Positions 19,098 through 28,974 of a DNA stretch of 64,000 nt are shown one piece after another. Source of the DNA: Betaproteobacteria bacterium (GTDB lineage Bacteria; Pseudomonadota; Gammaproteobacteria; Burkholderiales; SG8-41); contig CANJQI010000004.1 of assembly GCA_947476215.1 (NCBI GenBank), positions 490-64,489 of the forward strand, written 5' to 3'. Positions within the stretch are counted from its first letter, which is position 1; the number at the start of each line of letters is the position of its first letter. The notes under the pieces were generated by a model. That model worked only from the letters and a program-made list of their open reading frames with translations. It did no database searches and was not told the DNA's origin. Both the position numbers and the translations under genes were made by a program.

Positions 19098-19958
19098 TCA
19101 TTTACCGTTTGCTTCGCGGACTATCAGCGTGCGCTTGCGTGCTATTCCCCAACGATATCCGGAAAGCGATCCATCGCGTCTTACCACCCGATGACAAGGT
19201 ATGGCCACCGCCAGCGCATTCGCGGCGCACGCACTGGCCACTGCGCGCACGGCCTTGGGTGCGCCTATTTTGCGGGCAATTTCGGTATAGGTGGCAGTTG
19301 AACCGGCGGGTATCTTTTGCAGCGCCTGCCAGACCCTGAGTTGAAAGGTGGTTCCGTGAATATCGAGCGGCAGATTGAGCCCGAGTCGCGGCGCCTCGAC
19401 GAACCCGACGACTTGCGCCACCCAGTTCTCGAAGTTTACGTCGCCGCCGACTAAGCGGGCGCGCGCAAAACGATCCTGCAAATCGCGAACCAGCGCCTCG
19501 GGATCATCACCCATCAGAATCGCACAGATACCCTTGTCACTTGCTGCCACGAGGATGGCGCCCAGAGAGCACCTGCCGACGGCAAACCGTATGACGGTAT
19601 TGATACCGCCAGAACGATAGTTGCCGGGCGTCATGCCGAGCAGCTGATTGGACTTCTCATAGAAGCGGCTGCTGGCGTTAAAACCGGCGCTACAGATGGC
19701 ATCAGTGACCGGACTTTTCCTGCCGAGCGCATTGCGCACTTTTTCGGCGCGATGCGCTGTGGCATAAGCCTTGGGTGTTACTCCGGTCGCCGCCTTGAAG
19801 ACGCGGTGAAAATAGTGGGCACTGAACCCAGCCATTTCCGCGAGGTCCGCCAGCGACGGGCTCTGTTCGGCCTGCTCTATCACTCGGCACAGACGCGCGA
19901 TCATCGCTGTGTGCTGAACCTCCGTTCCTGAAACACGCACTTTCATCGCCCTGTTCAT
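19098..19958 (-). CDS. AraC-type HTH fused to methylated-DNA-[protein]-cysteine S-methyltransferase (Ada-like, without the N-terminal Zn domain)
   Basis: C-terminal PCHRVV active site, HGTTFQLRVWQAL, and an AraC HTH (LADLAEMAGFSAHYFHRVFKAATGVTPKAY). Start set at the ATG at 19958 (MNRAMKV) because the longer track ORF overlaps the divergent Bug gene. Confidence 0.8.
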   Translation of the reverse strand: MNRAMKVRVSGTEVQHTAMIARLCRVIEQAEQSPSLADLAEMAGFSAHYFHRVFKAATGVTPKAYATAHRAEKVRNALGRKSPVTDAICSAGFNASSRFYEKSNQLLGMTPGNYRSGGINTVIRFAVGRCSLGAILVAASDKGICAILMGDDPEALVRDLQDRFARARLVGGDVNFENWVAQVVGFVEAPRLGLNLPLDIHGTTFQLRVWQALQKIPAGSTATYTEIARKIGAPKAVRAVASACAANALAVAIPCHRVVRRDGSLSGYRWGIARKRTLIVREANGK

Positions 19959-20104
19959 CTGCTCACCAGAAGAGTTTCCGGAAAGATCGTATGCTATCAA
20001 CGCATCGGGGAAGACGCTATCCGGATCTTGCGTACCAGTTAGCCTCAGGGGCATTGGTACATCGCAGTAGAATAGCGATCGTGTCTGAATATCCCGGAGG
20101 GCAT

Positions 20105-21127
20105 GTGTCCAAACTGGCCAATCGCGCATGGGTCGTGCTTGCCGTAATGACGGTGACGCATGCGGCATGGGTTAGTGGGCAAACATTGTCACCCAGCACG
20201 GAACGGACGGTTTCGACTGGCTCAGAACATACCTATCCAAGTAAACCAATACGCTTTGTGGTGCCGTTTCCTGCCGGTGGCGCGACCGACATCATCGCGC
20301 GCATAGTCGGACAGAAACTGACCGAAAGTACCGGTCAATCGGTCATATTGGACAATCGTGGTGGTGGCTCAAGTATAGTCGGCACCGAGATCGCCGCGCG
20401 GGCCATCCCCGATGGCTACACCATACTGCTGGGTTCGTTTGCTTTTGCCATTACGCCGGCACTGCACGAGCGGCTGCCGTACGATACCGTGCGCGACTTC
20501 GCGGGTGTCAGCATGATAGGTAACGGCCAGGCCGCGCTGGTCGTACACCCTGCCGTACCGGCACACTCGGTGAAAGAGCTTATTGCCCTGGCGAAGGCAA
20601 AGTCAGGCGGGCTTAACTACTCATCGACCGGAGGCGGTAGTGCGAGCAATCTCGGCGCGCTGCTGTTCTGCCATATGGCGGGCGTGAAAATTACCACGGT
20701 TACGTTCAAGGGAGGAAGCCCCGCTCTGGTTGCGTTGCTGGCCGGCGAAGTCAACATGACATTCACCAGCATCGTGCCTACGCTGCCCTACATACGGTCA
20801 GGCAAGCTGCGTGCGTTAGGTGTCAGCAGTGCCAGGCGCACCAGCGTACTGCCGGACGTTCCCACCATCGCGGAAGCCGGCGTCAAGGGCTACGAGCTGA
20901 TTTCCTGGTATGGCGTACTGGCGCCACGCCGGACACCCGCCGCGATTGTGGAAAAACTCAGCAGCGAATTGATGCGCGCCTTGCGCAACGTCGAGGTACA
21001 GGAAAAACTGATTGCTCAGGGTATAGATCCGGTATCCAGCTCGCCGGCGGAACTTTCAAAGTACATCGCCTCGGAGGTCGCGAAGTGGAGCAAAGTGATC
21101 AAGGAGACAGGAGCCCGGCACGAGTAA
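20105..21127 (+). CDS. Bug family (TctC-like) tripartite tricarboxylate transporter substrate-binding protein
   Basis: GTG at 20105 after GGAGGG gives a signal peptide (SKLANRAWVVLAVMTVTHAAWVSG). The Bug signature YPSKPIRFVVPFPAGGATD follows. Confidence 0.85.
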   Translation: MSKLANRAWVVLAVMTVTHAAWVSGQTLSPSTERTVSTGSEHTYPSKPIRFVVPFPAGGATDIIARIVGQKLTESTGQSVILDNRGGGSSIVGTEIAARAIPDGYTILLGSFAFAITPALHERLPYDTVRDFAGVSMIGNGQAALVVHPAVPAHSVKELIALAKAKSGGLNYSSTGGGSASNLGALLFCHMAGVKITTVTFKGGSPALVALLAGEVNMTFTSIVPTLPYIRSGKLRALGVSSARRTSVLPDVPTIAEAGVKGYELISWYGVLAPRRTPAAIVEKLSSELMRALRNVEVQEKLIAQGIDPVSSSPAELSKYIASEVAKWSKVIKETGARHE

Positions 21128-21170
21128 ACGCGGAGAATAGCAACTACGCGGTCGGCAGTGCCGGGAAAGT

Positions 21171-22550
21171 TCAGGCGCTGAGCAAGCTTCGAAACACCCG
21201 CGCATCCGCGGTCTTTTCAATGTTCCAGACGGTGTCGATCAACTTGAGCGATCGCCGCTTGCCGATGATCGCCGCCGTCAGGTCCAGGACTTTTTCGGAA
21301 ACATCGGCACGGTTCATCGGATTATCGACAGTTCCCCTGGCGGCACGCGTATGGTGTCTTACGTGACGGCCATCGCGGGTGAAAATTTCGATGATGCCCT
21401 GGCGTGGCGGTTTGGCGGCGGTCAGTTCTGCGCTGGGCGCGAGCACTATGCGTTGTTTCAGCCTGGTCACGCGTCGGTCTTTCATGCGCGCAACATCATG
21501 CGCCGAGTCAAACGTCAGTTCGCCGTCGAGCAATGCAATCGCCAGCAAATGCTCGATGTTGACGTCGGTCATCTTGCTGTTACTCACGATATCTATCCGG
21601 TTATCGGGGGTGTGGATGACGAGTTTTTCGACCTTGTCGGCGGTTATCGCATGGTCTTTCATCAGCGCAAACAGCGAGGTTAGCGCCGCCTGCATAGGCG
21701 AGCCCACCGACCATTTCTTCATTTGCGTATTCATGATCTCGTAGTGCACGCCGAGCCCGCGCACCATTTCTTCCGGATTCGGATTCGACGAGAACGCGGA
21801 GAAAAAATTGCGGTTGCGCTGCCCGGTGAAAGTGTCCTCAACACCGGTGAATCCACATTCAATCATGGTGGCCGCGGCAATACCGTTTTGCGCGGTCATT
21901 CCGCCGAATACATAGGCTTTCATGACGTGTTCGCCGTCGCCCTCGAATGTCCTGATGCCGGAGGCCTGCTGAGCCGCATAGGACAGCAGATGGCGGGTTT
22001 TCTCCGTATCCAGACCCGCCAGCATTCCTGCCGCCGCCGCCGCGCCAAACAGATTTCCAAAGCTGTGATTCGAGCGACCGGCTTTGCGGAATTCAACGGG
22101 ATGAAATGAGCGAGTTATGCGGCAGCCGATGTCGTAGCCCAACACCACGGCCCGCAACAAAAACCTGCCATTGCGGTGTTTGTTTTCGGCCATGGCCAGC
22201 GCCGCCGGTACTATGCCGCACCCCGGATGCATGTTGGCGGCATAGTGCGTGTCGTCGGTCTCGTCAGCGTGTGCAAACATGCCGTTGGCGAATGCGGCGT
22301 TGGCGGCGGTAGTCACCAGCCGGGTGCCCGCCACGCACGCCTGTCGTGCACCCGCCAGCCCGGCGATGTAGGCGATTGCGCGCTTTCCGGGCAATAGTCG
22401 GGATCCTGAAATCATGGACGCGAGTGTGTCGAGCAGGTGGTGTTTGCCCTTCTCGACGACGTCTCCAGGCAGGGCTCTCCTGGCTGCGCCTGCGATGTAG
22501 GCGCTGACCTCTCGCATCAAAGGCGAGACCGCGGATTTCGACTTAGTCAT
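21171..22550 (-). CDS. MmgE/PrpD family protein
   Basis: Start at the ATG at 22550 (MTKSKSAVSP..), 7 nt after the upstream stop, with GAGG as RBS. PrpD-fold motifs are present (HLLDTLASMISG, HADETDDTH). Confidence 0.88.
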   Translation of the reverse strand: MTKSKSAVSPLMREVSAYIAGAARRALPGDVVEKGKHHLLDTLASMISGSRLLPGKRAIAYIAGLAGARQACVAGTRLVTTAANAAFANGMFAHADETDDTHYAANMHPGCGIVPAALAMAENKHRNGRFLLRAVVLGYDIGCRITRSFHPVEFRKAGRSNHSFGNLFGAAAAAGMLAGLDTEKTRHLLSYAAQQASGIRTFEGDGEHVMKAYVFGGMTAQNGIAAATMIECGFTGVEDTFTGQRNRNFFSAFSSNPNPEEMVRGLGVHYEIMNTQMKKWSVGSPMQAALTSLFALMKDHAITADKVEKLVIHTPDNRIDIVSNSKMTDVNIEHLLAIALLDGELTFDSAHDVARMKDRRVTRLKQRIVLAPSAELTAAKPPRQGIIEIFTRDGRHVRHHTRAARGTVDNPMNRADVSEKVLDLTAAIIGKRRSLKLIDTVWNIEKTADARVFRSLLSA

Positions 22551-22557
22551 ACGAACC

Positions 22558-24288
22558 TCAGGACGATGTCTTGGCAGCGCTGGATTTGGCAAGCAGGGAA
22601 TTCCAGTCCCGGGGCAGCCGAATTTTTGCGCTGGTGGCGTAACCCTGCTTAAAATTCTGCCGATAGATGCAGCAACGATTGCGCGTCGGATCACCTGAAA
22701 CAACTACCAACCATTTGGTCTCGGGCAACAGCAAAGGTACCTCGCGATTAGGGTCGTCCGACGTACACCACGCCTTGGGCATTTCGCCTTTCGCGACCAG
22801 TTCGCACAGTGTCGTGCCGGGCGGATGCGAGGTTCCCGCGGTCATATTCCATTCAAAGTAGTGCGCCGGAACTGTCGCGTTTTTCATGATGTAATCGACG
22901 ACATCCTGCTTCGAGTACCCAGCCCGGGCCACCAGCGACGCAATAACCGGTGTCATCAGAAGCACATGCGTCTCTATGTAACCGCGCGATGCCTGATACG
23001 GGTCTATCATGCGTTTGGCCCAGTCCACGATGTAATCCAGATGGCGTTCCGCGTTTTCGCCGGCCGTTGAAAACGGGTCACTCACGGCGCGCACCGAGGT
23101 AATGGTTACCGCATTGTCATCGGGTGCGAAACCGCGCATGACGTGCAGCGGCTGCCAGCCCATGTCGTTACAGGCTTTTTCGTTCTCCGCGACCACGGCT
23201 CTGAACATCTGGCCGAAGGTCGCCATATCGGTCGTGCCGGGCAGGAACTTCGGCACGTTCCTGCAAAACAACCGGTAAAAGCGGCCTATGCTGGTGTTGG
23301 CCTGATTGCCCGGACGCTGCGCGGCCACTTCGCAATTGAACTCCAGCTGTTTTGCAATGGGGCCATTCAATATGATCATGCCTTCCCATCCGGGCGTGCT
23401 GCCGCCATGCTTGGCGCCGAAATCGGGCGTGGCCATGACATCGACGATGGCGAGCAATATCGGCATGTATTCCGGACGACAACCGGCCATGACGCCGTTG
23501 ACCGCGACCTTCCATACCGTGGCCTCGGCCTGACTGGGATGCAATACGCCTATGACTTCATCGGGAGAGCGGTCGGTATATTTGAGAAACGCTTCTATGC
23601 TTTCCAGGGTCGGCGGCACGACAGGCAGACCGTCGGACCAACCCTGGCGCTGGAAGTGTTCGTTGACTTCATTGAAAGATCCCTTAAATACAATGTCGCG
23701 GTCCTGCGGTTGAGCCACGGGCGCCGGCGCGCCCTTTACCGGTTCGAGTTGGGTCAGCCCCTTGACGATCTGATCGATCAGCACTTCTTCGATATTCCGT
23801 GTGATCGTTTCGTCCTTGTGCGTGGAAATGACGCCCGGATACTCTGCAACCGGAAGATTGGGATACCCGGAATCCTTGCCTATGGCTTTAACTGTGCCCG
23901 GAAAGCCCTTGATGGCGATGGTAACGCTGGGTACCCCACAATTTTCCGCAACGATGCTGGCCCGCGAACTCGCGGACGTGCAACTTCCTCAACCACCATT
24001 GCCGGAAATAACCGCATCGACCTGATATTCCTTGAGTTTGCCGGGTAGCGCCTTGATGACATCCGACTCCACCGGACCATACGTGTCGCCGAATTTTTCA
24101 TGGGGGACGAATTTGATATCTGGATACCGCTTCAGCAATGCCTTTTCAACAACAGCGAATGTCAGTTCGCTGCCGAACTTGTGATTCGACAACTCGCCTA
24201 TGGTCATGCCATTCAGCGATTGCAGGCGGGCCGTAACGGTTCTTGCCTTCTGGGTCAGTCTGCCCAGCGGATACACGACCTCGTACAT
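22558..24288 (-). CDS. candidate selenoprotein: UGSC-motif domain (Sec at the UGA 23991..23989) continuous with a ~400-aa conserved domain of unknown function (WSDGLPVVPPT motif)
   Basis: ORF 23989..24288 (GAGGA RBS) ends ..AVISGNGG-TGA. The same frame continues GSCTSASSRASIVAENCGVPSVTIAIKGFPG...NIEEV with no stop into ORF 22558..23784, giving 576 codons in total. A hairpin lies 11 nt after the UGA. Confidence 0.7.
23960..23977 (-). promoter_or_regulatory. SECIS-like hairpin downstream of the UGSC UGA
   Basis: mRNA reads UGA-GGAAGUUGCAC-GUCCGCG-AGUU-CGCGGGC. This is a 7-bp stem (one G.U) with a 4-nt loop containing GU, starting 11 nt after the UGA. Confidence 0.55.
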
Positions 24289-24402
24289 GGATAATTCCTC
24301 TCGATGGAAAACGCTTCCTTAAGCCTCATGCACGCACAATGCGAAACATTGCGACTTGGCTAACGTGCGCTTGAACCTACAATGCGTGTTCTGCTTTGTC
24401 AA

Positions 24403-24426
24403 GAAAGCGGAACAGAAAGCGGAACA
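24403..24426. repeat. tandem duplication of the 12-mer GAAAGCGGAACA in the divergent intergenic region
   Basis: Two perfect adjacent copies lie between the UGSC gene start (24288) and the PrpD-like gene start (24509). Confidence 0.6.
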
Positions 24427-24508
24427 TGTCACCCTTCATCCGTTGCAATCAGATTGCCGCGAATTACTGATATCCTCCACATGCAATATCGACCAGGAGA
24501 AATACGCA

Positions 24509-25867
24509 GTGATTACACGCAAGCTTGCCGCCTTTGCGGCTGAACTCAAATACCAGGACCTGCCGGTGGCGACGGTCGAAACCGCAAAACGCCTGTTGCT
24601 CGATGGCCTGGGTTGTCTGCTTGCGGGCACCGCGGGTTGGCCGGGCCGCAGCGCTGCTGCGATGACGCGCCGGCTCGGCGGCGATGCGCAGGCCATGGTA
24701 TATGCCGAAGGCAAGCGCAATTCGGTGTGTCATGCCGCTTTCGCAAACGGCATTACGCTGTACAGCGTGGGGCTGAACGACTTTCTGCAACGCGCTGGCG
24801 CGCATCCGGGTGCGAGCGTGATACCCGTGTTGCTTGCGGTCGGGGAATGGCAGCGCTGTTCGGGCAAGTCGCTGATCGCCGCGATGGCGGCGGGATATGA
24901 AGTGATAGACCGGCTGGGACGGTCCATCATGCCCAGCCACAGGGAGCGTGGATTTCATCCGACCGGCACGTGCGGAACGTTCGGTGCTACCGCGGCGGCG
25001 GGCCGGTTGCTGGAACTAAACGGCGCGCAGATCGCGTGCGCGTTCGGCATCGCCGGCAGCCAGGCGGCGGGTCTCTACGAATATATCAACGACGGCACTT
25101 CCACCATCATGTTCCACGCCGGCCGCGCCGCCAAGAATGGCGTCGAAGCCACGCTGGCGACGCAGGCGGGACTGACCGGACCGGCGACTATATTCGAAGG
25201 CACGCGCGGTTTTTTTCGGGCCACCTCGGACAAGATAGACCTCGACGCCGCGTTGAAGGATCTGTCGCATCGATATGCACTGAACGAAACCACGTTCCGG
25301 CCGTATTTCGGGTGCACTTCTACCATCGCGGCATCGGGTGCAACGGCGCAGATCATGCTGCGCGTGGGCGGTGCGCGATCAGCGGACGTCGAAGAGGTCA
25401 ATGTTTATTGCAATCCGGTGGTTGCCAATGACAATGCCGAAACCGATCCTCGCACCTTGCTCGGTGCACGCCTGAGCCTGCCGTTCAACGTCGCCCTGGT
25501 GCTTGCCCATGGTGACGTCATGGTCGCCGACCTCGAGGAAAAAGATCTCATGGACAGCAAGGTCCGCAGCCTGATTCCCAAAATACGGATGATCAGCGAT
25601 GCAGCCATACCGCGCTTCGGCAGCACAGTCGAAGTCAAGTTCAAAGGGGGCACGAGCGAAAAGGTCGCCATGCATTCCTGGCGCGGAGACGCCGACGATC
25701 CGTTGCCCTGGAACGAAGTCGTCATGAAGTTCCGGCGCCTGGTACGCCCCGTGATCGCCACCGCGGGTCAGGACCGTATCGTTGAGCGGGTGGCGAATAT
25801 CGACAGCGCCGGCGTCAGCGATCTTGCGGAGGCATTAAGCGCGGCGCTCGCGCAGGGAACCGGCTAG
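24509..25867 (+). CDS. MmgE/PrpD family protein
   Basis: GTG at 24509 after AGGAG (MITRKLAAFAAELKYQDLP..). PrpD-like motifs are present (LLDGLGCLLAG). Confidence 0.88.
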   Translation: MITRKLAAFAAELKYQDLPVATVETAKRLLLDGLGCLLAGTAGWPGRSAAAMTRRLGGDAQAMVYAEGKRNSVCHAAFANGITLYSVGLNDFLQRAGAHPGASVIPVLLAVGEWQRCSGKSLIAAMAAGYEVIDRLGRSIMPSHRERGFHPTGTCGTFGATAAAGRLLELNGAQIACAFGIAGSQAAGLYEYINDGTSTIMFHAGRAAKNGVEATLATQAGLTGPATIFEGTRGFFRATSDKIDLDAALKDLSHRYALNETTFRPYFGCTSTIAASGATAQIMLRVGGARSADVEEVNVYCNPVVANDNAETDPRTLLGARLSLPFNVALVLAHGDVMVADLEEKDLMDSKVRSLIPKIRMISDAAIPRFGSTVEVKFKGGTSEKVAMHSWRGDADDPLPWNEVVMKFRRLVRPVIATAGQDRIVERVANIDSAGVSDLAEALSAALAQGTG

Positions 25868-25868
25868 G

Positions 25869-26843
25869 CTAACCCGCGGCAGGACGTGCGCCGCTATCCT
25901 TGATCATTTTTGCGATGCGGCTGATCTCGGATTTGATGGTGGACAGCAGTTCCGCCGGTGAACTGGCAACGATTTCCAGCCCCGCGTTAAACACCCTCTC
26001 CTTGGTGTCGGGTCGATTCAGGTAACGCACGATTTCCTGATTGAGTCTCGCGACGATGGCATCGGGCGTGCGCGCTGGTGCGAATATTCCATGCGTGGTT
26101 CCGGTCTCAAAACCGGGTATACCCGCCGCGGCGGCGGTCGGGAGTCCCGGTGCCAACGGCGTTGGCTGCGCGCTGGCGACCGCCAACGCGCGCAATCTGC
26201 CCTGCTTGACGTGCGGCATCACGGAAGTCGCGGTGATCACTATCATGTCCACCTGTCCACCGACCGTGGCATTGAGCGCGGGCCCCGCGCCTTTGTAGGG
26301 AATGGCCGCGATGTTGACACCGGCCATCGCCTTGAACAACTCGGCGGAAATATAGGTTGTCGCCCCCTTGGTACCCGATGCGCAGTTGATCACACCCGGT
26401 CTGGCTTTCGCCAACGCAACCAGTTCCTTGACGGTCTTGACCGGCAGGGATGGATGCACGGCGATGACCGCAGGCGAGGTCGTGGTCAGCGAGATAGGCG
26501 CGTAGTCCTTGATCGGATCGTACGGCACATTGTCCTGAAACAGCGGCAGCAGCCAGTGTGCATTGGCGCTGAACAGCAAGGTGTAACCGTCGGGCGGAGA
26601 CTTGGAAACAAGTTCAGCCGGAATGATGGCGCTGCCGCCACGATTATCCACGACCGCCTGCTGACCCAGGTTGGTGGAAAGACCTTGCGCAACGATGCGC
26701 GCCGCCAGGTCGGCGCCGCCGCCCGCCTCGGGCGCCACGATACGCAAAGGTTTGGACGGGTAGTTCTGGCAGTGCGCCACATCGCATCTCAAGAGTCCCA
26801 GCCCCATTAGAGCAATACTCAAAAACGAACCCTGCAATTGCAT
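25869..26843 (-). CDS. Bug family (TctC-like) substrate-binding protein
   Basis: 324 aa with a signal peptide, then YPSKPLRIVAPEAGGGADL. Confidence 0.88.
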   Translation of the reverse strand: MQLQGSFLSIALMGLGLLRCDVAHCQNYPSKPLRIVAPEAGGGADLAARIVAQGLSTNLGQQAVVDNRGGSAIIPAELVSKSPPDGYTLLFSANAHWLLPLFQDNVPYDPIKDYAPISLTTTSPAVIAVHPSLPVKTVKELVALAKARPGVINCASGTKGATTYISAELFKAMAGVNIAAIPYKGAGPALNATVGGQVDMIVITATSVMPHVKQGRLRALAVASAQPTPLAPGLPTAAAAGIPGFETGTTHGIFAPARTPDAIVARLNQEIVRYLNRPDTKERVFNAGLEIVASSPAELLSTIKSEISRIAKMIKDSGARPAAG

Positions 26844-26859
26844 AATTTATCCTTACAAA

Positions 26860-28974
26860 TCAATTCTTTGTGCGCGTAATGCGAATTACCGCAGGTATCC
26901 GGCGCAAGGCGCGCATGATCTGCGCCAGATGCAAGCGGTTTGAAACCTGCAGCGTGAAACGCAAGGTTGCGTACTGGTCGCCGTCGCCGGAATCCACTGC
27001 CACGTTGTCGATGTTGGAATTGGCCTCCGCGATTTCAGCCGCAACCTTGGCCAGCACACCGCGCTGGTTCATTGCGACCAGCCGGATGCTGACGCTAAAA
27101 AGTTTCTTGGTATCCGGCGACCATTCAACGTCGAATACCTTGTCCGGATCCGAGCGCGACTTGGCGATGACCGGGCAATCGTGCGTATGGATCGCCATCC
27201 CCTGCCCCTTGTTGATGAGTCCGATAATCGGATCACCGGGAATTGGCGTGCAACAATGGGCGAACTGCACCGCCATCCCTTCAGAGCCCCGTATCATCAC
27301 CGGCCCGCTCGCTTTGCGCTCCCCGGTCGATGCATCGCCAAGCGACAACAGGCGGCGCGCCACCACGACACTCAGCCGTTTGCCGAGGCCGATGTCCGAC
27401 AGCAGATCCTCAAGCGATTTTGCGCCGGTATCCTTGATCAGCTTTTTCCACTGCGGCTCCTTGAACTGGGCAAGACTTGATTTGAAAGTTCCCAGCGCCT
27501 GATTCAGCAATCGCTCACCCAGTTGCGCCGATTCCTGCGACTGCATGGTTTTCAGAAAGTGGCGGATATGGGCGCGCGCATTGGCGGTGACGACGTAGTT
27601 GAGCCATTGCGGATTGGGTTTGGCATGCGAGGCGGTAATGATTTCGACGCGGTCGCCGTTGCGCAGCTCGGTCCTGAGCGGCACCAGTTCGTCATTGATC
27701 TTGACCGCCACGCAGCGATTGCCGATGTCGGTATGCACGGCATAGGCAAAATCAACCCCGGTCGCGCCGCGCGGCTGCGACAGTATCTTGCCCTTGGGCG
27801 TAAAGACATACACCGCGTCCGGGAACAGATCGATTTTCAGGTGTTCGAGAAATGCGACGGAGTCGCCGCCGTCCAACTGGACCTGCAACAAGCTTTGCAG
27901 CCACTGGTGCGTTTTCTTCTGCAACTCGTTCAGCGACGCGCCCGAATTCTTGTAGAGCCAGTGCGAGGCGACACCGGCTTCCGCGATTTTGTGCATTTCC
28001 TGCGTGCGTATCTGCATCTCTATCGGACTGCCGAATGGTCCAAACAAGGTGGTGTGCAACGACTGGTATCCGTTCTCCTTGGGTATCGCTATGTAGTCTT
28101 TGAAACTGCCGGGTATGGGTTTATACAGTCCGTGCAGCGCGCCTAGCGCCAGATAACATGCCGGAGTGTCCTTGACGATAATGCGAAACCCGAATACGTC
28201 GAGCACTTTTGCGAACTGCAGCCGCTTCTCTATCATTTTTCGATAGATGCTGTGTACGTGCTTTTCGCGTCCCTGCACGGCGGCTTCCATGCCATCCTGT
28301 TTGAGGCGCTCCGTGATCGCGTCGCGTACCTTGCCGACGACTTCGCGCCGGTGGCCGCGCGCAGCCACGAGCGCTTTGGTCAGCACCCGATTACGCGCCG
28401 GATACAAAAAACTGAAGCTCAGATCCTCGAGTTCCTGAAAAATGTTATTCAGGCCTAGCCGGTTCGCGATCGGCGCGTAAATTTCGAGCGTTTCGCGCGC
28501 AATGCGCTTGCGTTTGGCGGCAGGCACCGCGCCCAGCGTGCGCATGTTGTGCAAACGGTCGGCGAGCTTGATGAGCATGACACGCACGTCGCGCGACATT
28601 GCGAGGAGCATCTTGCGGAAGTTTTCGGCCTGCGCTGCTTCGCGGGTTTCGAACTCAATATGATCGAGCTTGCTCACGCCGTCGACCAGTTCCGCCACCG
28701 ACTTGCCGAACTTGCGGGTGATTTCGGCCTTGGTAACGGAGGTGTCCTCCATCACGTCATGCAGCAGCGCGGCAGTCAATGCCTGGGAATCCAGATGCAG
28801 CTTGGCAAGTATGTTCGCGACCTCCAGCGGGTGCGAAATGTAAGGTTCGCCGGACGCGCGGAACTGCCCGCTATGCGCGGCTTCGCTGAACTGGTAAGCG
28901 GTAGCCAGCCGCTCCATGTCTTCCGGCTTGAGATAGCCGGACCACTCCTCGGGCAGTGTTGCAGCGTCTGACAT
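26860..28974 (-). CDS. spoT: bifunctional (p)ppGpp synthetase/hydrolase
   Basis: 704 aa with an HD domain (HPLEVANILA, HDVMEDT), a RelA/SpoT synthetase domain, and TGS and ACT regions. Confidence 0.92.
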   Translation of the reverse strand: MSDAATLPEEWSGYLKPEDMERLATAYQFSEAAHSGQFRASGEPYISHPLEVANILAKLHLDSQALTAALLHDVMEDTSVTKAEITRKFGKSVAELVDGVSKLDHIEFETREAAQAENFRKMLLAMSRDVRVMLIKLADRLHNMRTLGAVPAAKRKRIARETLEIYAPIANRLGLNNIFQELEDLSFSFLYPARNRVLTKALVAARGHRREVVGKVRDAITERLKQDGMEAAVQGREKHVHSIYRKMIEKRLQFAKVLDVFGFRIIVKDTPACYLALGALHGLYKPIPGSFKDYIAIPKENGYQSLHTTLFGPFGSPIEMQIRTQEMHKIAEAGVASHWLYKNSGASLNELQKKTHQWLQSLLQVQLDGGDSVAFLEHLKIDLFPDAVYVFTPKGKILSQPRGATGVDFAYAVHTDIGNRCVAVKINDELVPLRTELRNGDRVEIITASHAKPNPQWLNYVVTANARAHIRHFLKTMQSQESAQLGERLLNQALGTFKSSLAQFKEPQWKKLIKDTGAKSLEDLLSDIGLGKRLSVVVARRLLSLGDASTGERKASGPVMIRGSEGMAVQFAHCCTPIPGDPIIGLINKGQGMAIHTHDCPVIAKSRSDPDKVFDVEWSPDTKKLFSVSIRLVAMNQRGVLAKVAAEIAEANSNIDNVAVDSGDGDQYATLRFTLQVSNRLHLAQIMRALRRIPAVIRITRTKN

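Follow-up and report, generated by a model that had tools for sequence, protein, structure and literature searches.

A UGSC-fusion selenoprotein gene and its PrpD-like and Bug-receptor neighbors in a betaproteobacterium

Introduction

Proteins of the UGSC family have been recorded since 2008 as some of the most abundant selenoproteins of freshwater and soil metagenomes, with no assigned function (PMC2398784, PMC13188914), and a locus in the genome of a betaproteobacterium raises the question of whether one of them is tied to specific pathway partners. The window analyzed here is a stretch of 64,000 nucleotides, namely positions 490-64489 of contig C4 in the genome that we label G000 (contigs C1-C307; GenBank assembly GCA_947476215.1). 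At 20105..26843 it holds a gene for a selenoprotein in which a UGSC domain is fused to a large C-terminal domain, here called X1, flanked by two genes for MmgE/PrpD-like enzymes (PrpD_A and PrpD_B) and, outside these, by two genes for solute receptors of the TctC/Bug family (Bug_L and Bug_R). The original prediction regarded all five genes as a single selenoprotein-centered unit. The comparisons below do not bear this out, and point instead to a conserved pair or trio, viz., the fusion, PrpD_B and Bug_R, to which the remaining genes are local additions. The prediction had also remarked that a UxxC redox selenoprotein in such a setting lacks a described pathway role; a review gives the function of UGSC as unknown (PMC13188914). 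In the literature searched, neither the conserved partnership nor the scale on which the family is expanded in this genome is described.

A selenocysteine codon in the fusion gene

The gene at 22558..24288 (minus strand), previously put forward as a candidate, is a true selenoprotein gene, and the call lies far beyond chance. Its frame of 577 codons, which specifies 576 residues and a terminal TGA stop, is otherwise open except for a single TGA at codon 100. This UGA codon for selenocysteine (Sec, U) occupies 23989..23991 (minus strand) within ISGNGG-U-GSC, in the wider context AVISGNGG-U-GSCTSA. In tblastn searches of the same genome, TGA is found at the aligned position in all 36 paralogous N-terminal domains, in the setting x-U-G-x-C-[TAS], and homology extends on both sides of it in every one of the 36. 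The matches listed from 26 related genomes number roughly 130, and only three of them are without the in-frame TGA, being partial matches that stop short of the Sec position. In the wider family, alignments from 76 metagenome loci show TGA at the Sec position 64 times and a Cys codon (TGC or TGT) 14 times, a usage that marks a classical Sec/Cys pair; the excess of Sec over Cys forms parallels the ratio of 255:21 in the Global Ocean Sampling (GOS) data (PMC2398784).

Eleven nucleotides past the UGA begins a predicted hairpin that resembles a selenocysteine insertion sequence (SECIS), with a 7-bp stem and the loop AGUU (GUCCGCG-AGUU-CGCGGGC; 23960..23977, minus strand). A perfect stem of at least 6 bp, placed 10-15 nt past the UGA, is present in 89% of the genome's 53 UGSC genes versus 10.6% of a control set of 2000 coding segments drawn at random in frame. 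The hairpin loops of the UGSC genes contain GU, and the hairpin is kept across subfamilies with different encoded peptides (TSWSVHD, TPAVLRA and TSASSRA). Judged by predicted fold and spacing, the putative SECIS expected of a bacterial selenoprotein gene is present. The genome also encodes the machinery for Sec insertion: a tRNA-Sec with anticodon tca (detected with aragorn) and SelA, SelB and SelD (584, 446 and 424 bits, respectively, all above the cut-offs), with selB and selA adjacent on contig C221. The selD gene (G000:C41:26860-27789) itself carries an in-frame TGA, which makes SelD a selenoprotein in this organism as well.

Recurrence of the fusion, PrpD_B and Bug_R in other contigs

With the nature of the gene settled, the question becomes which of its neighbors accompany it elsewhere. 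Six other independent contigs contain the right half of the cluster at the level of orthologs, and, with the window included, its genes occur in four arrangements. Writing U for the fusion, P for PrpD_B and B for Bug_R, and giving identities to the window proteins (100% each for the window itself), the order in the window is <U P> <B, of which L043 is a mirror image (fusion 76%, PrpD_B 77%, Bug_R 73%). The order B> P> U> is found in L048 (70%, 71% and 73% for the three proteins in the same sequence) and in L162 (71%, 71% and 75%), and again in L047, with a decayed PrpD_B gene (fusion 74%, PrpD_B 78% and 58% in two fragments, Bug_R 75%). At the L047 site (L047:5686-6446, assembly GCA_040961615.1), PrpD_B residues 1-148 and 344-450 are left, and the selenoprotein and Bug_R look intact. 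L050 presents the order U> B> P> (73% for the fusion, 67% for PrpD_B, 69% for Bug_R). The last contig, L161, lacks Bug_R and is arranged as <U, ABC-type binding protein>, P>, with a PrpD_B ortholog of 80% identity and a fusion represented by an N-terminal fragment at the contig edge (66%). Overall, the fusion is 70-77%, PrpD_B 67-80% and Bug_R 69-75% identical to the window counterpart. A reverse survey that started from PrpD_B found the fusion within 1.5 kb in seven of the seven contigs with a PrpD_B ortholog (at least 67% identity); a 64% homolog in L163 is without a nearby fusion. L046 has a fusion of 75% identity; its PrpD (about 50%) and Bug (44%) are less closely related. By these identities, the neighborhood of selenoprotein, PrpD_B and solute receptor is conserved at the level of orthologs.

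The binding protein that stands in place of Bug beside the pair in L161 (L161:268-1428) is of the Peripla_BP_6/ABC_sub_bind type, which suggests that the uptake system was swapped there and the enzyme pair kept. Three contigs (L043:12567-14102, L048:8298-9791 and L050:9523-11034) encode, in the vicinity of the trio, a FAD_binding_2/DAO flavoprotein of 497-511 residues, with 90% identity between the L043 and L050 copies. We considered it as a fourth member and rejected it, as the contig of the window has no copy and the family runs to about 75 copies.

The left half of the cluster behaves differently. No related locus holds a gene whose best match is PrpD_A, and the sole close relative of Bug_L is a gene in L043 (66% identity); PrpD_A and Bug_L are specific to this lineage. 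Neither the PrpD_B ortholog nor the PrpD-linked type of fusion occurs in any of 40 related genomes, and in five congeners the DNA downstream of spoT, the gene that borders the cluster, is unrelated, which by itself shows only that the site varies. Taken together, the absence from relatives and the variable DNA beside spoT indicate that the unit is accessory and sporadic. In a maximum-likelihood tree, the PrpD-linked members fall in an unresolved basal grade of their subfamily.

Linkage measured against a genome crowded with PrpD and Bug genes

Such recurrence has to be weighed against gene density, since this genome carries about 814-910 TctC/Bug genes (about 15% of genes and 14% of bases in 5.75 Mb) and about 230 MmgE/PrpD genes (about 4% of genes). 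In a within-genome survey, 60 loci with UGSC or X1 were compared with random intervals. Nine of the 60 loci (15%) have a PrpD-like gene at a distance of up to 500 bp, versus 14.8% of random intervals, and at 2 kb the proportions are 27% versus 24%; by locus type, the nine comprise 6 of 32 fused loci, 2 of 18 split loci and 1 of 10 X1-only loci. Bug genes are enriched, with corresponding values of 67% versus 40% within 500 bp and 88% versus 53% within 2 kb. Metagenome loci of the wider family (n=80, 31-67% identity) have PrpD in one case and Bug in about 20. Their immediate neighbors are heterogeneous: a Pfam tally of 84 such neighbors gave TctC and Pyr_redox_2 five times each, SBP_bac_5 and flavodoxin-like domains three times each, SelB twice and SelA once, so that pyridine-nucleotide-disulfide oxidoreductases and TctC tie as the commonest. 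Neighbors of the relatives also include enzymes of carboxylic-acid metabolism, for instance CoA-transferase, acyl-CoA dehydrogenases, old yellow enzyme (OYE) and FAD_binding_2 flavoproteins. At the family level, then, flanking by PrpD and Bug genes is not unusual in this genome. The expectation that homologs of the selenoprotein would be linked to PrpD-like and Bug genes therefore stands for the orthologs of the fusion, PrpD_B and Bug_R, and fails for the family as a whole, in which PrpD adjacency is at background.

It might accordingly be argued that the cluster is a by-product of a genome saturated with Bug and PrpD genes, in which the fusion has no functional tie to its neighbors and the recurrence amounts to inherited synteny. 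The background-level adjacency, the single PrpD among the 80 metagenome loci, the heterogeneity of neighbors across the family and the existence of sister clades without PrpD all speak for such a view. It does not explain why the recurring neighbors are specific orthologs (67-80% identity) drawn from more than 200 paralogs, why the adjacency survives changes of order and orientation, why the reverse survey succeeded in every contig, or why the PrpD_B ortholog and the PrpD-linked fusion are jointly absent from the 40 relatives. We consider it unlikely on balance, and the strongest of the competing explanations.

Domain architecture of the fusion and its place in the UGSC family

What the selenoprotein might contribute can be approached through its two domains. 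The UGSC domain (residues 3-179; 23752..24282, minus strand) covers the whole of the Pfam model PF24696 and scores 95.5 bits against a gathering cut-off of 25, which places it within that family. Against the NCBIfam equivalog NF041046 it reaches 55.4 bits, below the cut-off of 125, and it is thus a divergent fused relative and not the stand-alone 147-residue equivalog. We therefore assign the protein, on its profile scores, to the catalogued and uncharacterized UGSC family as a divergent member of a fused subfamily. A 'UGSC/Unknown_1' fusion is on record (Zhang & Gladyshev 2008, PMC2398784) and shares with the window protein the U-G-S-C motif, the UGA-encoded Sec and a large fused domain; X1 may correspond to Unknown_1. 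A scan of genome contigs with the protein returned a single distant deltaproteobacterial locus.

The full-length AlphaFold2 model (predicted local distance difference test [pLDDT] 87.9, predicted template modeling score [pTM] 0.89) gives the UGSC domain a three-layer α/β fold in which Sec100 is placed between a strand (92-96) and a helix (101-116). A Foldseek search of the PDB with the full-length model returned no match at E ≤ 1e-3, and the N-terminal domain retrieved only weak, generic Rossmann- or flavodoxin-like domains.

X1 (residues 191-576; 22561..23718, minus strand) comprises about 385 residues with the motifs W-S/T-DGLP-V/I-VPPT and NGVMAGCRPEYMP. It has no match in Pfam or NCBIfam and, in a search with the family profile, no relative by sequence in the PDB. 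Modeled alone (pLDDT 91.1), its best Foldseek match in the PDB had E 2e-3 and a template modeling (TM) score of 0.23; class I fumarate hydratases were set aside as fold relatives, the similarity (TM 0.23, root-mean-square deviation 18 Å) being too weak. Likewise rejected were Pfam matches of 42 family members to RepB_primase_C, Ish1 and Gly_reductase, whose E-values of 0.004-0.05 are at chance level. X1 matches 4241 clusters (50% identity) at E ≤ 1e-3, and it has an invariant or near-invariant core of D219, G220, L221, P222, T227, C270, R336, R339, R343, E368, D533 and R536. In this genome, UGSC and X1 are fused in about 34 loci and encoded by adjacent genes, in either order, in about 18. The two domains hence form one functional unit, either by fusion or through adjacent genes. 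In ten long family members (626-1254 residues) only UGSC was detected, with unrelated or sub-threshold matches in three of them. UGSC-fusion genes frequently stand in tandem here and in related contigs, each pair joining members of different subfamilies that share about 40% identity at most, examples being L043:9603-11348, L162:7914-9659, G000:C52:2178-5603 and G000:C101:11006-14438.

The Stickland reductases, namely D-proline reductase (PrdB) and glycine reductase (GrdB), offer a comparison. In these enzymes the selenol is the nucleophile, and the resulting Se-S bond is resolved by thiols. They combine a Sec-x-x-Cys subunit with a separate substrate-binding subunit and a carboxylate substrate, and the likeness to the fusion is one of analogy only; the cluster lacks a pyruvoyl-forming proprotein, and no kinship in sequence or fold is shown. 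Searches for such kinship gave no match to PF07355 (GRDB) and, for PF09338, only chance-level matches (E 0.048) in two of the 42 members scanned. The UxxC motif of PrdB and GrdB is listed in the earlier survey (PMC2398784).

The PrpD-like enzymes, the Bug receptors and the layout of the cluster

All five genes lie where they had been predicted, as confirmed by the open reading frame (ORF) listing and by Pfam and NCBIfam scans. PrpD_A (21171..22550, minus strand) and PrpD_B (24509..25867, plus strand, divergent from the fusion gene) each have the Pfam domains MmgE_PrpD_N and MmgE_PrpD_C and are 26% identical to each other. Identification of either as a 2-methylcitrate dehydratase was rejected, the scores (26-34 bits for PrpD_A and 53 bits for PrpD_B) being far below every cut-off (458-950) of the NCBIfam PrpD equivalogs (TIGR02330/NF006943/NF042438). 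The nearest solved relatives of both are iminodisuccinate epimerase (2HP0/2HP3) and IRG1/cis-aconitate decarboxylase (E 1e-37 to 1e-24), which have the two MmgE/PrpD domains in common with them, and this suggests that PrpD_A and PrpD_B are polycarboxylate-transforming enzymes. We know of no description of a member of the MmgE/PrpD superfamily paired with a selenoprotein.

Bug_L (20105..21127, plus strand, convergent with PrpD_A; Pfam TctC, 243 bits) and Bug_R (25869..26843, minus strand; TctC, 208.6 bits) are 42% identical and both have N-termini resembling signal peptides. As had been noted, the cluster is without a regulator, TctA or TctB; the sole intact tctA of the genome is on contig C95. 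Neither Bug gene is co-encoded with a TctAB pair, both being orphan receptors, and the presence of one intact tctA suggests that the Bug genes of this genome are in general orphan receptors feeding a shared transporter. They resemble the orphan Bug/TctC receptors of Bordetella and Rhodoplanes in having signal peptides and in lying beside catabolic enzymes and away from tctA/tctB. The massive lineage-specific expansion of Bug genes is likewise shared with Rhodoplanes, in which 434 TctC/Bug genes in an 8.2 Mb genome were published as massive over-representation (PMC5994714); the present genome differs in having about twice that published extreme in a smaller genome.

The 7-nt gap between the fusion gene and PrpD_A is exact, and a GAGG ribosome-binding site of PrpD_A overlaps the stop codon of the fusion gene, so that PrpD_A is predicted to be translationally coupled to the selenoprotein gene in the window. 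PrpD_B starts with GTG, with AGGAG 8 nt upstream. The cluster is flanked on the Bug_L side by an ada-like gene (19098..20168, minus strand) and on the Bug_R side by spoT (26860..28974, minus strand). Bug_R starts 16 nt past the spoT stop on the same strand (26843..26860) and is preceded by an AAGGA ribosome-binding site; this accessory solute receptor may be co-transcribed with rpoZ-spoT.

In the divergent region between the fusion gene and PrpD_B, the only stretch strongly conserved between the window and L043, TTTCTTGACAAA ... CATTGTAGGTT, is a putative promoter-like block for the selenoprotein gene (24374..24402, minus strand; TTGACA, 17 nt, TAGGTT). A promoter-like site on the plus strand overlaps it. 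Repeats at 24403..24426 and 24336..24386 are, unlike the promoter-like block, not conserved in L043.

A proposed role in the use of an imported polycarboxylate

We propose that the selenoenzyme works with Bug_R and PrpD_B on an imported polycarboxylate, a reading that as a whole we hold at a little better than even (roughly 55%), and our best guess for the fusion itself is a Sec/Cys reductase acting on such a compound. Bug_R would capture an organic polycarboxylate in the periplasm, and uptake would proceed via the single TctAB transporter of the genome. PrpD_B, which is akin to iminodisuccinate epimerase and IRG1, might then carry out a cofactor-free epimerization, dehydration or decarboxylation of the acid, with the selenoenzyme acting on that substrate or on its product by reduction or by selenol-nucleophilic attack. 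The fusion is envisaged as a cytoplasmic selenoenzyme in which Sec100-x-x-Cys103, at the start of a helix, would be the redox or nucleophile pair, acting against an arginine-rich pocket of X1; the latter would be a large catalytic or substrate-binding domain, in which Cys270 and several arginines are near-invariant. A Se-S bond would form, and cellular thiol reductants would recycle the enzyme. PrpD_A and Bug_L would be lineage-specific additions to this core. Transport through Bug_R, a carboxylate as substrate, the redox chemistry and the sequence of steps are what we infer from these parts. For the redox chemistry, the indications are the UxxC motif, which the model places at a helix N-terminus, the carboxylic-acid enzymes next to the relatives and the recurrent flavoprotein disulfide reductases among the neighbors.

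Several observations weigh against this proposal. The well-supported clades {C86, L040} and {L133, L134, L135, L042, L053} have no PrpD within 6-8 kb; in these two PrpD-less sister clades (66-69% identity), a Bug gene is adjacent in most cases. One of the trio loci, L047, has lost an intact PrpD_B to decay, and the seven contigs come from fairly close relatives, so the linkage may in part be inherited synteny. Within the window the fusion, PrpD_B and Bug_R form three separate transcription units, the last seemingly with spoT, and the cluster is without a dedicated reductase gene. Finally, neither the UGSC nor the X1 family has a member with an assigned substrate, product or activity, and X1 is without a solved or annotated relative, which means that its chemistry cannot be read from homology.

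The same motif and neighbors could also be accommodated by a general thiol or selenol enzyme of redox chemistry or repair, acting for example on oxidized small thiols or electrophile adducts, which would protect or service many catabolic modules instead of belonging to the PrpD_B pathway. UxxC is typical of thiol oxidoreductases (see also PMC2398784), at least 53 copies stand beside many different enzyme families, and flavoprotein disulfide reductases and flavodoxin-like or FMN reductases are among the neighbors elsewhere. A housekeeping role, however, does not call for dozens of paralogs that are 25-45% identical and have a 385-residue domain varying around a conserved core; such divergence fits substrate-specific enzymes better, and the specific pairing with PrpD_B would be unexpected for a generalist, so that we regard this explanation as rather improbable. 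Least credible by a wide measure is that the TGA is a true stop, with a 99-residue fragment and a 408-residue protein as two genes or a pseudogene: public contigs do show paired calls of 99 and about 390-455 residues, and the best 120 of more than 6000 database homologs are all calls of 373-472 residues starting after the TGA, but sequence is kept on both sides of the codon in all 36 paralogs, the relatives listed retain it in every match save the three partial ones, a SECIS-like hairpin stands at a fixed distance, distant homologs have Cys codons at the position and the Sec machinery is complete.

Genome-wide expansion and what it would mean

The split calls of the database homologs reflect a wider problem, as standard gene callers split the UGSC-fusion family essentially everywhere, and the selenoproteomes of such bacteria are consequently badly under-counted. 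In the genome studied here, at least 53 UGSC genes of four motif subtypes are credible as selenoprotein genes, and an in-frame TGA is present in every one of them; a census of 2016 counted 33 UGSC genes in 26 organisms (PMC5029168). This genome would rank among the largest bacterial selenoproteomes reported, for which 57 and 63 genes are stated, the selenoprotein-rich organisms being placed mainly among anaerobes (PMC13188914). Other families are numerous as well, with about 69 family III CoA-transferases beside the FAD_binding_2 flavoproteins already mentioned.

More tentatively, and with more doubt than attaches to the proposal for this locus, UGSC-X1 proteins could be a large unrecognized class for selenium-dependent, substrate-specific catabolism of organic acids, built on a catalytic domain whose fold is without a solved relative and diversified together with orphan Bug receptors. 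If this is true, at least 53 such selenoenzymes operate in this genome, a scale of selenium-dependent metabolism undescribed outside anaerobes, and UGSC-X1 with PrpD_B and Bug_R would be the first of the class to have pathway partners defined closely enough for finding its substrate. The conserved three-part neighborhood provides a first pathway handle on the unexplained UGSC family.

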